IMG/VR virus record: IMGVR_UViG_3300045988_137643
Span: 28,377-92,376 of that record
DNA: 64,000 nucleotides
Direction: 5' to 3' (one strand)
DNA from: a virus
Lineage: Duplodnaviria; Heunggongvirae; Uroviricota; Caudoviricetes
Numbering within the stretch: position 1 is the stretch's first letter; the number at the start of each line of letters is the position of its first letter. Shown piece after piece: positions 18,673 to 57,465 of this stretch. Under the pieces are notes generated by a model that was not told the origin of the DNA, searched no databases, and worked only from the letters and a program-made list of their open reading frames with translations. Made by a program: the position numbers and the translations under genes.

Positions 18673-18715
18673 CTAATACTAGAAAACAATTTGTTTAAAA
18701 AACAAAGGAAAGCAC

Positions 18716-20056
18716 ATGACCGAACTTTGCCATACAGGACGCGGGCTGTCCGAAGAGTTTGATGAAGATTTCCAGAACAGATTGACGGCATATTTTTGTC
18801 GTGATCACGAGTTTCTTACTCGTGCGGGAGATCTGGTTGTACCTAGCCAATTTGCCAATGCGGCCAATGCCATATTGGTTAATATGGTTTCGGGCTATTA
18901 CCGTATGTACAAGAGCGCGCCCTCTTCATCTGCAATTCTGGATATGCTTAAGCGTGCGAAACGCGATAAGACTATCCGTGAGGAACTATTCGCCGATGTT
19001 GTTGCTGCGTTTAAGCGCATCCTTGCAGAAAAATTGTCCGATACCTCGTACATGGTTGACCAGGTATCAACCTTCGCAAAAAGCGTAGCGTTTGATGATG
19101 CTCTGATTAAGGCTGCTGAACTGAAAGAGAAGGGCGACTTTCAGGGGGCGATGGCAATCATGGCCAAGGTTCAGCAGATTGGATCGAACGAAGCGACCGG
19201 AATCTATGACTACTACACCTCCGCAAGTGAGCGATTGAAAGCGCGTGAATATGAGGCTTCAGAGGAGTATGTACCAAACAGTATTACAACTGGACTCCCT
19301 CTTCTCGATAGGTTGCTGTACCAAAAAGGCTGGGCAAAGCGCGAAATGGTGCTCTTCATGGGGTTCGCTAAATCCGGTAAATCGACCGCAATGGGTGAGT
19401 TTTCCATAAACGCAACGCTTGCTGGCTACAATGTACTGTATCTCTCGCTGGAGGTTCACACCAACATTTTGTCCGACCGTTTTGATGCAAGATTGTCGGA
19501 GACGGAAATGTCCAAGCTGGTGGAACGGCGCGATGAAGTTCATCGTAAGTTGGCAGAGTTGGGAGCCACTAAGGGGATTGGTAGTTTGTGGGTTGTTGAG
19601 CGTCCGTCAGGAAGTATGTCACCGGCAGATCTGGACCGTATGCTTAACAGTATGAAAGCCAATGGCATGGTGCCTGACATGCTTGTTGTCGACTACGCAG
19701 ATTTGATGCGTGCCAGTTATGACCTTCGTGATGATCGCGCCAACATTCGTAGTATCTACACCGATTTACGTGCTCTTTATGACAAACATAACGTTGCTGG
19801 AATCACGGCATCGCAGACAAACCGTGAAGGTGGCGCGTCAGAAGTTGCCACAATGATGCACGCCGCCGACAACATCGAAAAAGTACGTATTGCTGACCTG
19901 GTAATAACGATCAACAAAACCGAAGAAGAAGAAGCGAAAGGAGAGGCTCGTCTCTACTTTGCTGGTTCACGTAACCAGCAGGGAGGGATCAGCATTCGTG
20001 TTAAACAAAACCTCGAACAAATGCGCTTCATTGAGCGGATCTTAGACGTTACCTAA
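18716..20056 (+). CDS. DnaB-family replicative helicase
   Basis: Walker A GFAKSGKST; LVVDYADLM and ASQTNREG helicase motifs. Confidence 0.75.
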   Translation: MTELCHTGRGLSEEFDEDFQNRLTAYFCRDHEFLTRAGDLVVPSQFANAANAILVNMVSGYYRMYKSAPSSSAILDMLKRAKRDKTIREELFADVVAAFKRILAEKLSDTSYMVDQVSTFAKSVAFDDALIKAAELKEKGDFQGAMAIMAKVQQIGSNEATGIYDYYTSASERLKAREYEASEEYVPNSITTGLPLLDRLLYQKGWAKREMVLFMGFAKSGKSTAMGEFSINATLAGYNVLYLSLEVHTNILSDRFDARLSETEMSKLVERRDEVHRKLAELGATKGIGSLWVVERPSGSMSPADLDRMLNSMKANGMVPDMLVVDYADLMRASYDLRDDRANIRSIYTDLRALYDKHNVAGITASQTNREGGASEVATMMHAADNIEKVRIADLVITINKTEEEEAKGEARLYFAGSRNQQGGISIRVKQNLEQMRFIERILDVT

Positions 20057-20137
20057 AAAATAAGCGTGGAGAACACCTCCACGCTTGATTCATTGGTGAA
20101 ACAACTTTTCTTTTGCCAAACCACAAAAGAAAAACAC

Positions 20138-21319
20138 ATGAGCCTTTATGTTATATCAACATTTAGGTTGGTCACAATATTGCCTGTTAAAAGTGGAATT
20201 ATCGTGAGCGAGCTGAAAGAGCTAATTACCGAATTAGATTTTGAACAATGGTTGGACACTGAAGGTATCGTTTATCGACGTGGAGGCGTGAGTGCTCGCG
20301 GTCGTGAAGTGAATATCAAGGAGTGTCCGGTATGCGGCAGCTCCAACTGGAAGGTATATTTCAATCTGACCAGTGGCGTCGGCAAATGCTTCGCTGGTGA
20401 TCATCCCGAAGAGATTCAGTTCAATAAGCTGGTCTTCCTCAAGCACTACAGCGGTAAATCACGACGACAGTTCGAGGAATATGTGCAGAACGCTCTTCTT
20501 TCCCAGGGGTGGGCACCAAAGAAAGAAGAGATAGTGCTTACAAGCACAGTCGAGTTAGAGGGACCACTTGCACTCCCTCGTCATTACGAACTTCCTATAG
20601 ATGGCCGTCTTCCAGACTATCTGGTTGAACGAAACATATCGCCTGAAATGGCAAAGTATTTTGACCTACGATACTGCGTCGAAGGCAAGCACGCTTATGT
20701 AGATCCGTATACAGATCAGGTTAAAGGACAGATATTCGATATGCGAATACTGATACCGGTTTACGATCTGGATGGGGTAATGAAGACATTTCAGGGGCGA
20801 GACATTACCGGTACAGCTGAACGTCGCTACCTCTTTCCTATGCAGCTTCCAGCTTCAGGCAAGTTTCTCTACAACGGCCATAATGCGGTCGGCAAACAGA
20901 CTGTAGTTGTCTGTGAGGGGGCGTTCGATGTTATGGGGGTTAAACGAGCTATTTTTGATGAAGAAACATTACGTGATTACGTGGAACCGATAGGAACGTT
21001 CGGGATGCATCTATCTGGTAACACCACTCAGGATGCAGAAGATCAGTTAGGCGCGTTCCTGACGCTCAAGGCGCGTGGGTTACGTAATGTGATCATGATG
21101 TGGGATAGTGAAAAGCAAGCTATACGCAACACTATGGCCGCAGCCAGGCGACTGACCAGTATCGGTCTTAATGTCAAAGTTGCGTGTTTGGGTGAGGAAG
21201 GACTCGACCCGGGCGGTGCAACGCCAGAACAAATTATCAAAGCCTATTATCGGGCAAAACCGTATACCAAACAGTTGGAGTTGCAAAGCAAGGTTTTGGG
21301 CATTAAGGCTCTATCGTAA
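20138..21319 (+). CDS. DNA primase (zinc ribbon plus TOPRIM)
   Basis: CPVCGSS...GKC zinc ribbon; VVVCEGAFDVMG TOPRIM; ATG 20138 preferred because the track start 20066 overlaps a hairpin and 20138 has the conserved AAAGAAAAACACATG context. Confidence 0.65.
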   Translation: MSLYVISTFRLVTILPVKSGIIVSELKELITELDFEQWLDTEGIVYRRGGVSARGREVNIKECPVCGSSNWKVYFNLTSGVGKCFAGDHPEEIQFNKLVFLKHYSGKSRRQFEEYVQNALLSQGWAPKKEEIVLTSTVELEGPLALPRHYELPIDGRLPDYLVERNISPEMAKYFDLRYCVEGKHAYVDPYTDQVKGQIFDMRILIPVYDLDGVMKTFQGRDITGTAERRYLFPMQLPASGKFLYNGHNAVGKQTVVVCEGAFDVMGVKRAIFDEETLRDYVEPIGTFGMHLSGNTTQDAEDQLGAFLTLKARGLRNVIMMWDSEKQAIRNTMAAARRLTSIGLNVKVACLGEEGLDPGGATPEQIIKAYYRAKPYTKQLELQSKVLGIKALS

Positions 21320-21394
21320 CAAGTGCCGCTAAAATAAGTAGATGATTACTTATCTTTCTGTAAGAATACTTTCATCTGTTAGCTAGGAGTTGGT

Positions 21395-56217: not shown

Positions 56218-56222
56218 CATAT

Positions 56223-56250
56223 GGTGGGGTGTATCCCCACCTTCTCTTTG
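56223..56250 (+). terminator. Hairpin terminator candidate
   Basis: GGTGGGG-tgtat-CCCCACC then ttctcttt. Confidence 0.45.
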
Positions 56251-56322
56251 ATTTGTAAGCCTTGTTTAAACAAATAAGATAACAACTTGTTTAAACACAT
56301 CAAAAAGCAAAAGGAAAAACAC

Positions 56323-57465
56323 ATGTCATATTCAACGTTCCGTTTGGGTGCTAATGATGCAACCAAAGAGCCTATGTTCCTCGGACAATCTGTCAACGTG
56401 GCACGTTACGATCAGCAAAAATACCGTGATTTTGAAAAGTTGATTGAACGTCAATTGTCTTTCTTCTGGCGGCCGGAAGAAGTTGATATTTCGAGCGATC
56501 GTATCGACTTCAACACGAAGCTGCGGGACCACGAACGTCACATTTTTCTGAGCAATCTCCGTTATCAAACGTTACTCGATTCAGTTCAGGGACGTAGCCC
56601 AAATGCAACGTTGCTGCCGCTTATCTCTATTCCTGAACTGGAAACGTGGGTTGAAACATGGTCTTTCTCTGAGACTATCCATAGCCGCAGCTACACCCAC
56701 ATTATTCGTGGCATGGTGGACGATCCGAGTATTGTTTTTGACGGTATTGTTACGGATGAAGAAATCATCAACCGAGCGATCAGTATCTCTGCTGAATATG
56801 ACAGGCTTTATGGGATGACCTGCGAGCGCCAGTCGTTAGGTGAGAAGGAGTTTGAACGTCTGTACGTAAATGAATATGGCTGGGAGCCATACCCTTTGCA
56901 CCGTCAGCTTTTCCGCACGTTGGTGTCCATTAATGCGCTTGAGGCGATCCGTTTCTATGTAAGTTTTGCATGTACGTTTGCCTTTGGCGAACGGAAGTTG
57001 CTTGAGGGTAACACCAAAATTATGCGCTTTATTGCCCGTGATGAAGCTCTGCATTGCGAAGGAACTGAACGCATGATCCGCTTCATGCGTACCGGTCGCG
57101 AAGGTTTATTGTGGAAAGAGATTGCTGCTGATGAAGAAAACGTCATTTACGACACCATGAAATCAGTCGCCGAACAAGAAATGAACTGGGCAGACTATCT
57201 CTTCAAAGACGGTTCGATGATTGGTTTAAACGCGGATATTCTCAAAACCTATGTAAAATACCGCACCAATCTGGCTATGAATCGTCTTGGCCTGAAGGCT
57301 TTATTTCCAGAGGTTACCACCGATCCGCTGGTCTGGATGAACAAGTGGTTGTTAACCGACACACTGCAAATTGCACCACAAGAGGCAGAGCAAAGCACAT
57401 ATCTGGTAGGTCAGATCGATTCTACCGTGGATAAGGCTTCTCTAAGCCAGTTTGCTGACCTGTAA
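56323..57465 (+). CDS. nrdB: Ribonucleotide reductase class Ia beta subunit
   Basis: N-terminus MSYSTF...[20 protein letters not shown] matches E. coli NrdB as recalled; ATG 56323 has AAAGGAAAAACACATG context (track start 56287). Confidence 0.9.

Follow-up and report, generated by a model that had tools for sequence, protein, structure and literature searches.

What makes several genes of one element open with almost the same leader, up to the last base before the start codon? The question is raised by a stretch of 64,000 nucleotides from a virus of the Caudoviricetes (IMG/VR record IMGVR_UViG_3300045988_137643, positions 28,377 to 92,376; one strand, 5' to 3'), which we call the window. An initial annotation, made from the sequence alone, had pointed to at least ten genes sharing a nearly identical Shine-Dalgarno (SD), spacer and start context, and had suggested either a regulator acting at the start codon, as T4 RegA does, or selection for uniform high expression. 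By megablast the window is part of an SSU5-group phage-plasmid, with an identity of 96-97% to three Escherichia phages (CMS-2020a, PhiR41_1 and Cyrano) and of ~79% to Salmonella phage SSU5; tail genes (1-13 kb) are followed by lysis, partition, replication, recombination and nucleotide-metabolism genes. As stand-in for the whole genome we used p009_B, a complete plasmid of E. coli (NZ_CP048306.1; 110,182 bp; 123 PGAP-annotated genes) that is 97-99.7% identical to the window in reverse orientation. For comparisons across lineages we anchored orthologous leaders at the ATG in five enterobacterial lineages: the window, SSU5, Y. pestis pFra, a Klebsiella plasmid and a Buttiauxella plasmid.

A leader motif at early gene heads

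All ten listed starts (18716, 20138, 32585, 34001, 37645, 38194, 41656, 45351, 49285 and 56323) carry ...AAAGGAAA(A/G)CAC directly before the ATG, and the near-identity of context noticed there holds at every one of them, chance being excluded by shuffles and strand counts. The leader form common to these genes is nearly identical and U-free, (A)AAGGAAAAACAC-ATG, and its consensus in this element is AAAGGAAAAACAC. The ten motifs are the following:

18700..18718, + strand: DnaB-like helicase gene (18716-20056), ACAAAGGAAAGCAC-ATG; conserved in SSU5, GGATAACAAACAC-ATG in Klebsiella
20122..20140, + strand: primase leader, AACCACAAAAGAAAAACAC-ATG, no GG; start of an upstream open reading frame (uORF) in relatives, in frame with the primase here
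32569..32587, + strand: CobS-like AAA ATPase gene, ACAAAGGAAAAACGC-ATG; GGAAAAACAC-ATG or a near variant in the other four lineages
33985..34003, + strand: DnaE (DNA polymerase III alpha) gene, GAAAGGTAAAAACAC-ATG; the same in SSU5 and pFra, near-identical in Klebsiella and Buttiauxella
37629..37647, + strand: gene of a 143-aa protein of unknown function, AAAAAGGAAAGCAC-ATG; the same as the DnaB site from -13 to +4
38178..38196, + strand: gene of a gp32-family single-stranded DNA-binding protein (SSB; 38194-39216), ACAACAAGGAGAAACAC-ATG; TAC in the four other lineages
41640..41658, + strand: gene of a 66-aa membrane protein, heading the SPFH operon, AACCACATAGGAAAACAC-ATG
45335..45353, + strand: gene of a 91-aa protein of unknown function, AACCACAAAAGGAAAAACAC-ATG; orthologues keep CAC and otherwise vary (GGAGAAAACAC, GGAGAAGCAC, GGAGGGGCAC)
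49269..49287, + strand: SbcD-like metallophosphoesterase gene, AACCACAAAGGAAAAACAC-ATG; GGAAAAGACAC-ATG in orthologues
56307..56325, + strand: nrdB, GCAAAAGGAAAAACAC-ATG; GAGGGAAACAC-ATG in SSU5

The excess over chance is large. The degenerate 15-mer AAAGGAAARCACATG, allowing at most 2 mismatches, has 7 matches in the window where 0.32 would be expected; all are on the + strand, and none of 100 shuffles reached 7. The string AAACACATG has eight occurrences on the + strand and none on the - strand (~0.36 expected), and seven of the eight are at gene starts. The window has 10 copies of the motif and the whole genome 12-14, always on the coding strand and always at an ATG. Four sites (20138, 41656, 45351 and 49285) share a longer unit, AACCACAAA(A)GGAAAAACACATGA, and are nearly identical over 22-24 nt. 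C at -1 and -3 and A at -5, -6 and -12 are invariant among the ten, and A at -2 is present in nine. An SD core (AAGGA, AAGGAG or AGGT) lies ~7 nt from the ATG in 9/10 sites; site 20138, which reads AAAGAAAA, is without the GG of the SD. Duplex energies of the motif SDs with ACCUCCUUA range from -4.2 to -8.5 kcal/mol. U is absent from the motif leaders, as is G except in the SD core, and their mean A+C content is 0.74 versus 0.50. They hold 2.5 ACA triplets per -25..+1 interval (other genes of the element, 0.59; E. coli, 0.43), a count that is partly circular because CAC followed by A itself contains one ACA.

Several ways of extending or relocating the motif were discarded. A site acting at the level of DNA was rejected, since CACATG is not in excess overall (18 and 9 per strand, ~15 expected) and the excess is confined to gene starts. 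An A at +4 is common to the genes of the element generally (67/123) and was not taken as part of the motif. Scanning viral contigs for exact matches to AGGAAAAACACATG returned scattered single hits at the chance level for a 14-mer, which was uninformative. One internal look-alike, AAAGAAACAC-ATG without GG, was seen at 22663-22677 of the window, inside the 3' end of gene 22245-22715 and 37 nt ahead of the start of the ligase gene; its ORF has only 19 codons, and SSU5 has ACATGA at the same position.

The motif is specific to this family of elements. The triplet found most often at -3..-1 in p009_B is CAC (14/123 starts), and AAACAC precedes nine of the 123 starts, any other hexamer being found at most twice. 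The accessory/early region beyond the window has three more motif genes, and the late structural module has no full motif, its edge gene (33818-34201 of p009_B) ending in GGACAC before the ATG. CAC occupies -3..-1 in 13/124 genes of SSU5, 6/44 of pFra, 6/30 of the Klebsiella plasmid and 5/51 of the Buttiauxella plasmid (30/249 together). The controls gave 0/114 in E. coli K-12, ribosomal-protein operons included, 0/42 in P1, 2/58 in Jerseyvirus SS3e and 0/50 in an Acinetobacter relative. Pooled, this is 44/372 starts in the family versus 2/264 in the controls, with any p-value indicative only, as orthologues are not independent. Upstream of all starts, the genome-wide information profile is an ordinary SD profile, indistinguishable from that of E. 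coli, and most genes of the window and of SSU5 have varied SDs and spacers. From this profile and the hexamer counts, the motif is distinct from the typical ribosome-binding site of the element. Among 50,697 phage records, a BLAST search with the 30-mer found several places per record only in SSU5-like phages. Look-alikes at T3-like gp2.5 SSB and Jerseyvirus helicase-primase genes had E-values of 0.2-8, at chance level, and the 2/58 of SS3e argues against a shared class. We also rejected an ancient feature of the wider group, as the distant Acinetobacter relative (DnaE 37% identical) lacks the motif. We found no earlier description of it in papers on SSU5-like elements, and a full-text search for the motif strings gave unrelated primers only.

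Conservation among the five lineages is concentrated where SD pairing cannot explain it. Identity over the spacer (-6..-1) is 86% for motif genes, 62% for other genes preceded by a gap and 69% for coupled genes, while over -40..-23 motif genes are no better conserved than others (50% vs 56%). The best-conserved positions are those of the spacer, above all C-3 and C-1, which are unable to pair with the 3' end of 16S rRNA; the proposal that conservation exceeds SD requirements is thus borne out. The SD core differs between lineages (AAGGA, AAGGAG, GAGGG, AGGT) and spacer length varies, yet CAC persists, and at the DnaB site of Klebsiella, where the spacer is different and longer, AAACAC is retained. 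An ordinary ribosome-binding site would be free of constraint outside core, spacing and start codon, and the hexamer counts, the 0/114 of E. coli and the spacer identity all depart from this. The motif is therefore a real, statistically robust, family-wide sequence feature, constrained beyond SD pairing. At DnaE, a 67-codon ORF (33823-34026, the counterpart of SSU5_051) overlaps the start by 26 nt, so that the motif lies inside it; this may add to the very high conservation upstream of DnaE.

Some sites differ between lineages. At 37645 an exact 13-nt motif patch (-13..-1) is present in the window lineage only; the other four lineages are unrelated there, with both flanks homologous. At 38194 the window has CAC where the four others have TAC, a change towards the motif, and at the CobT-like gene the change is in Klebsiella (ATAAGGAAAGCAC-ATG, vs ACAAAGGATTAGCC-ATG in the window). 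By these alignments, several lineages acquired the motif independently. With sites ascertained in SSU5, uniformity among sites over 12 nt is 0.81 in the window and 0.72 in SSU5, a small effect.

The genes involved form a class. About one gene in ten of the element carries the motif, and such a gene always comes first after a gap: 43-254 nt of intergenic sequence precede 10/10 motif genes, and at least 40 nt precede 26 of 53 other genes (Fisher p=0.003). Several of the gaps upstream of motif genes contain a terminator-like hairpin. Three of the ten genes encode small proteins of unknown function, and the rest have mostly DNA-replication functions.

Resemblance to start-associated sequences of other phages

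The closest analogue of the motif is the start-associated sequence (SAS) of Cluster K mycobacteriophages, alike in organisation and not in sequence. SAS is a 13-bp asymmetric repeat found in 11-19 copies a few nt from mostly ATG starts, in the non-structural half of the genome only (PMC3203893, Pope et al. 2011). It combines an SD core with conserved positions unable to pair with 16S rRNA, and in about half of the cases an inverted repeat (ESAS) lies upstream (PMC3203893). Like SAS, the present motif is multi-copy, in one orientation, next to ATG starts of non-structural genes only, conserved across sub-lineages and sometimes found before different genes, and it too joins an SD core to positions that cannot pair with rRNA. 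Unlike SAS (GGGATAGGAGCCC), it has the consensus AAAGGAAAAACAC, so that only GGA is common to both and a match within 2 deviations fails. It abuts the ATG, whereas SAS lies 3-7 bp from the start, and both host phylum and phage type are different. A further start-associated repeat, in the Felix O1-like Citrobacter phage Mordin, is likened to SAS by its authors; it differs from the motif in length (26 bp), in sequence (CCAACAATCCTAAACTGGAGAATCTA) and in belonging to a virulent myovirus (PMC4611695).

A start leader that is specific to a class of genes and goes beyond SD needs is the same phenomenon as SAS, whose function has been open since 2011 and was still unverified in 2025 (PMC12699233). 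As the motif occurs in phages compatible with E. coli K-12, such as PhiR41_1, a setting in which reporter fusions, toeprinting, Ribo-seq and sRNA genetics are established methods, the start-leader question becomes directly testable. SSU5-like phage-plasmids (~800 in PLSDB) are widespread in clinical Enterobacteriaceae, with relatives including Y. pestis pFra/pMT1 and many Klebsiella and E. coli plasmids, and the control of their early and replication genes is essentially unstudied.

Possible functions of the motif

Predicted folding sets the motif leaders apart. Their mean minimum free energy over -30..+30 is -4.9 kcal/mol versus -8.0 kcal/mol for other leaders (p=0.001), and their predicted unpaired probability over -18..+6 is 0.67 versus 0.53 (p=4e-5). 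We put at about 0.5 the probability that the motif is a cis-acting translation-initiation cassette (enhancer plus SD) for the first cistrons of early operons in enterobacterial SSU5-like phage-plasmids. Such a cassette would comprise a moderate SD core, AAGGA, ~7 nt from the AUG; around it a leader of A and C only, which would not fold on itself and would offer no upstream AUG, GUG or UUG; and ACA/CA elements, often one before the core (CCACAAAGG) and always ACACAUG, where two overlapping ACA end on the A of the AUG. It would be placed at genes that open a translation unit after a terminator/promoter gap, with no upstream ribosome to open the mRNA. The proposed outcome would be efficient, context-independent 30S loading, with replication and early operons translated at similar rates. 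Ribosomal protein S1 or direct 30S contacts might take part; like the enhancer activity and the physiological purpose, this is inferred.

Precedent for such a cassette exists in the same host family. In Salmonella, ACA triplets close to the SD act as translation-enhancing modules: when they are replaced, expression falls by up to 90% for yifK and more than 100-fold for dppA, and initiation is stimulated by CA repeats and by ACAA repeats as well (PMC3879156). Like these enhancers of GcvB targets (Yang, Figueroa-Bossi and Bossi 2014, PMC3879156), the motif places ACA/CA by the SD in an unstructured leader, and when it is read as ACA/CA elements its conserved C's make sense. The Salmonella modules were shown to raise initiation 10- to 100-fold (PMC3879156), whereas an enhancer role of the motif is our reading of its make-up. 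A-rich spacers gave the highest expression in E. coli Flow-seq (PMC7264876).

A number of observations weigh against this cassette. ACA enhancers work without strict positioning (PMC3879156) and differ individually, while the motif is a stereotyped 16-22 nt unit repeated in one genome; neither its register locked to the AUG nor the 22-24 nt of near identity among four sites would be predicted from flexible enhancers. A generally optimal context should also be found in host genes, and 0/114 of them, including ribosomal-protein genes, use CAC before the AUG. Cytidines between SD and AUG are generally unfavourable in the E. coli Flow-seq library (PMC7264876), which means that plain yield maximisation cannot explain two invariant C's. 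The greater uniformity of sites in the window lineage than in SSU5 (0.81 vs 0.72), slight as it is, hints at concerted evolution rather than independent optimisation. The earlier idea of uniform high expression therefore survives in part: the A-tract, the ACA/CA elements and the low structure fit documented enhancer features, and the spacer cytidines do not.

Could a factor acting in trans be the reason for the strict register? We regard it as unlikely that the motif is the RNA operator of a phage-encoded translational regulator that sits at the start codon and jointly sets the synthesis of replication and early proteins, in the manner of T4 RegA or gene 32, although such a regulator would account for the lock on the AUG and for conserved C's that cannot pair with rRNA. 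The genes make a regulon-like set (helicase, primase leader, DnaE, SSB, NrdB and SbcD), and the sites resemble RegA operators in their lack of structure, in their place at the AUG or immediately 5' of it, in the poly(A) tract beside the AUG, and in recurring on many early and replication mRNAs (~30 for RegA; PMC3014915). In composition the two differ: RegA sites are A+U-rich with no clear consensus, and the motif is A+C-rich and U-free. Pfam detected no RegA (PF01818; RegA is a 122-aa protein), CsrA, Hfq, KH, S1 or cold-shock domain in 40 window proteins, ~55 proteins beyond the window lying outside the scan, and none of these domains is annotated in SSU5, p009_B, pFra or the Klebsiella and Buttiauxella relatives. 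A regulator of the RegA kind, as had been proposed, is thus not supported. The sole concrete phage candidate is the gp32-family SSB, which could coat unstructured leaders once single-stranded DNA is saturated. It matches PF08804 over its full length (E=6.3e-65), has a Cys/His cluster and an acidic tail, has no PDB match by phmmer, and its own gene bears the motif. Its 5' untranslated region (5'UTR; 38115-38193) is nearly invariant in the five lineages and has two predicted hairpins followed by 25 unpaired, A/C-rich nt, a layout that recalls the autoregulatory leader of T4 gene 32. T4 gp32 is an mRNA-specific autogenous repressor (PMC535899), with an unstructured leader as its target (PMC3014915). 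It is known to repress its own mRNA only, through a pseudoknot and an A/U tract, whereas leaders here are A/C-rich and the SSB-leader hairpins never vary, which gives no covariation support. By analogy, autoregulation or wider regulation by this SSB is a reasonable idea. The mildly greater uniformity of window-lineage sites fits a phage regulator; the consensus is without the lineage shifts expected of a co-evolving pair of protein and site.

A host regulator as the reader of these leaders, tying early genes to host physiology, seems to us the least probable of the accounts weighed here. It would most readily be GcvB with its G/U-rich seed, Hfq-dependent, and less readily CsrA, whose site is A(N)GGA. 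GcvB pairs with C/A-rich ACA sequences at or upstream of the ribosome-binding site, its repression depending on the enhancer activity, and the SELEX consensus for CsrA has a core similar to ACA(N1-3)GGA (PMC3879156). By eye, CACAACAA of the SSB leader is complementary to UUGUUGUG of GcvB R1, and AAACACA to UGUGUUU. Energies with R1 are marginally better for motif leaders (-13.1 vs -11.0 kcal/mol for others, p=0.02), but the gap is small and of the kind that any A/C-rich sequence would yield; random E. coli leaders average -11.1, many non-motif leaders do better, and perfect pairing extends over 7-8 bp only. CsrA sites normally hold GGA in a hairpin loop and come in pairs, while these leaders are unstructured with one GGA each, and the strict AUG register would stay unexplained. 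Nor need the motif be adaptive at all: a short promoter-leader-ATG cassette might have spread between gene heads by illegitimate or short-patch recombination and not yet diverged, an origin we hold to be distinctly improbable. The 22-24 nt common to four sites, the identity of the DnaB and 37645 sites from -13 to +4, the exact 13-nt patch at 37645 between homologous flanks and the slightly higher uniformity of the window lineage all speak for copying, and genes for a recombinase, a 5'-3' exonuclease and SbcCD are present in the element. Yet the motif class is present in all five enterobacterial lineages, mostly at orthologous genes, which makes it old, and still the spacer retains 86% identity next to intergenic sequence at ~50%. 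The single-base change at 38194 (TAC to CAC) goes towards the consensus, CAC is kept where SD and spacer length differ, and no flanking homology is there to drive gene conversion. There remains, besides the cis-acting cassette, a broader reading that we hold tentatively, as possible though not probable: that the motif, as an equivalent of SAS in enterobacteria, serves as operator for a translational regulon, with one factor (the gp32-family SSB, an unrecognised small phage protein, or host GcvB/Hfq) binding the U-free AAAGGAAAAACAC-AUG leaders. If so, synthesis of helicase, primase, DnaE, SSB, NrdB and SbcD would be coupled to replication demand or to a switch between maintenance and lytic growth.

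Some other candidates were tried and dropped. For a trans antisense RNA of the P1 c4 type, whose target sites in P1 are annotated, the best non-self duplex in p009_B was -18.5 kcal/mol, within the range of shuffles (-17 to -21). MazF-type cleavage or avoidance of ACA was set aside, ACA not being depleted in coding strands (observed/expected 0.95) and AAACAC not being avoided in sense strands. Duplexes with the whole of GcvB gave meaningless long-loop structures, and the analysis was restricted to R1. As a separate observation, in the distant Acinetobacter baumannii relative the gene of the DnaB-like helicase is directly preceded by that of a protein annotated as Hfq (2151-2690), for which the window showed no equivalent.

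Start codons, palindromes and neighbouring features

Nine of the ten motif ATGs are annotated starts in close relatives (p009_B by PGAP, PhiR41_1 by RAST, SSU5 in RefSeq), the exception being 20138. For nrdB, the start at 56323 that had been preferred over a longer ORF agrees with PGAP and RefSeq (380 aa). No correction was needed for the exonuclease, as 49285 is already the first start of the SbcD-like ORF. The start at 20138 proposed for the primase is a conserved initiation site, with motif and first codons invariant in the window, SSU5 and Klebsiella and a terminator-like hairpin at 20062-20086, but it is homologous to the start of a uORF. In SSU5 and Klebsiella the equivalent site opens a uORF of 22-23 codons ahead of the primase (35839-35910 in SSU5, 1960-2030 in Klebsiella, 20138-20206 in the window), which ends in an overlap with the primase ATG (ATGA), as in SSU5, or 2 nt short of it. 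The position of this stop suggests translational coupling with the primase. In the window lineage the uORF is joined in frame to the primase, and GTG 20204 is the counterpart of the PGAP/RefSeq primase start. In practical terms, the motif reliably marks true start codons and operon heads in the SSU5-like family, and it exposed the conserved primase uORF.

Two palindromes recur upstream of genes in the window. Palindrome 1, ATAAGTA-nn-TACTTAT (ATAAGTAnnTACTTAT, 16 bp), has 23 matches versus 2.4 expected, in ~17 intergenic regions; palindrome 2, AAACAAnTTGTTTAA, has 8 matches versus 1.2 expected. Their positions are:

1888, 8800, 12566, 13683, 17777-17919, 21334, 24856, 32507, 38090, 41608, 45318, 45649, 49153, 53837, 58553 and 62227: palindrome 1
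32507-32522: palindrome ATAAGTAACTACTTAT, upstream of the CobS-like gene
16652-16668: palindrome 2, just upstream of parA
18682-18698: palindrome 2, just upstream of the DnaB-like gene, where the palindrome AAACAATTTGTTTAA lies at a distance of 17 nt
30347-30361: palindrome 2, just upstream of the CobT-like gene
42757-42771: palindrome 2, just upstream of gene 42786
56280-56294: palindrome 2, just upstream of nrdB

Palindrome 2 also recurs ahead of several SSU5 genes outside the region matching the window. Eight of the ten motif genes have palindrome 1 or 2 at 17-112 nt upstream; the distance varies and the same palindromes stand ahead of ~14 non-motif genes, whereas ESAS directly adjoins SAS. 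On this evidence the palindromes are context of the motif genes and may, at most, form one functional unit with the motif. At three places palindrome 1 fills the spacer and -10 of a sigma-70-like promoter, and as a set it looks like dispersed operators for a plasmid-prophage repressor, as with the many C1 operators annotated in P1. One of these promoter-like sequences, TTGAAA-17-TATCAT at 41598-41626, has its spacer and -10 filled by the palindrome at 41608..41623; from it, the predicted 5'UTR of 41656 would be ~23 nt long, essentially the motif alone. A scan for sigma-70 promoters returned fewer sites than in shuffles, so the 5' ends of most leaders are left undefined by it.

Further features were seen in passing. 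The start of repA at 48064, on the minus strand, has a partial motif, ACAAAGGTGTCCAC-ATG, and iteron-like direct repeats (GGATCTAT, 12-14 nt spacing) upstream of this gene, at 48230-48300, are probably the plasmid origin. A tRNA cluster at 25624-26625 has four genes (Asn-GTT, Tyr-GTA, Thr-TGT and Ser-TGA), of which the SSU5 counterpart is annotated with tRNA-Asn only; an Rfam scan of the window at gathering thresholds found tRNAs only. Outside the window, p009_B carries host-like metG and apbC genes at 28458-31749, and an HNH/NUMOD4 endonuclease gene splits dnaE in several relatives.

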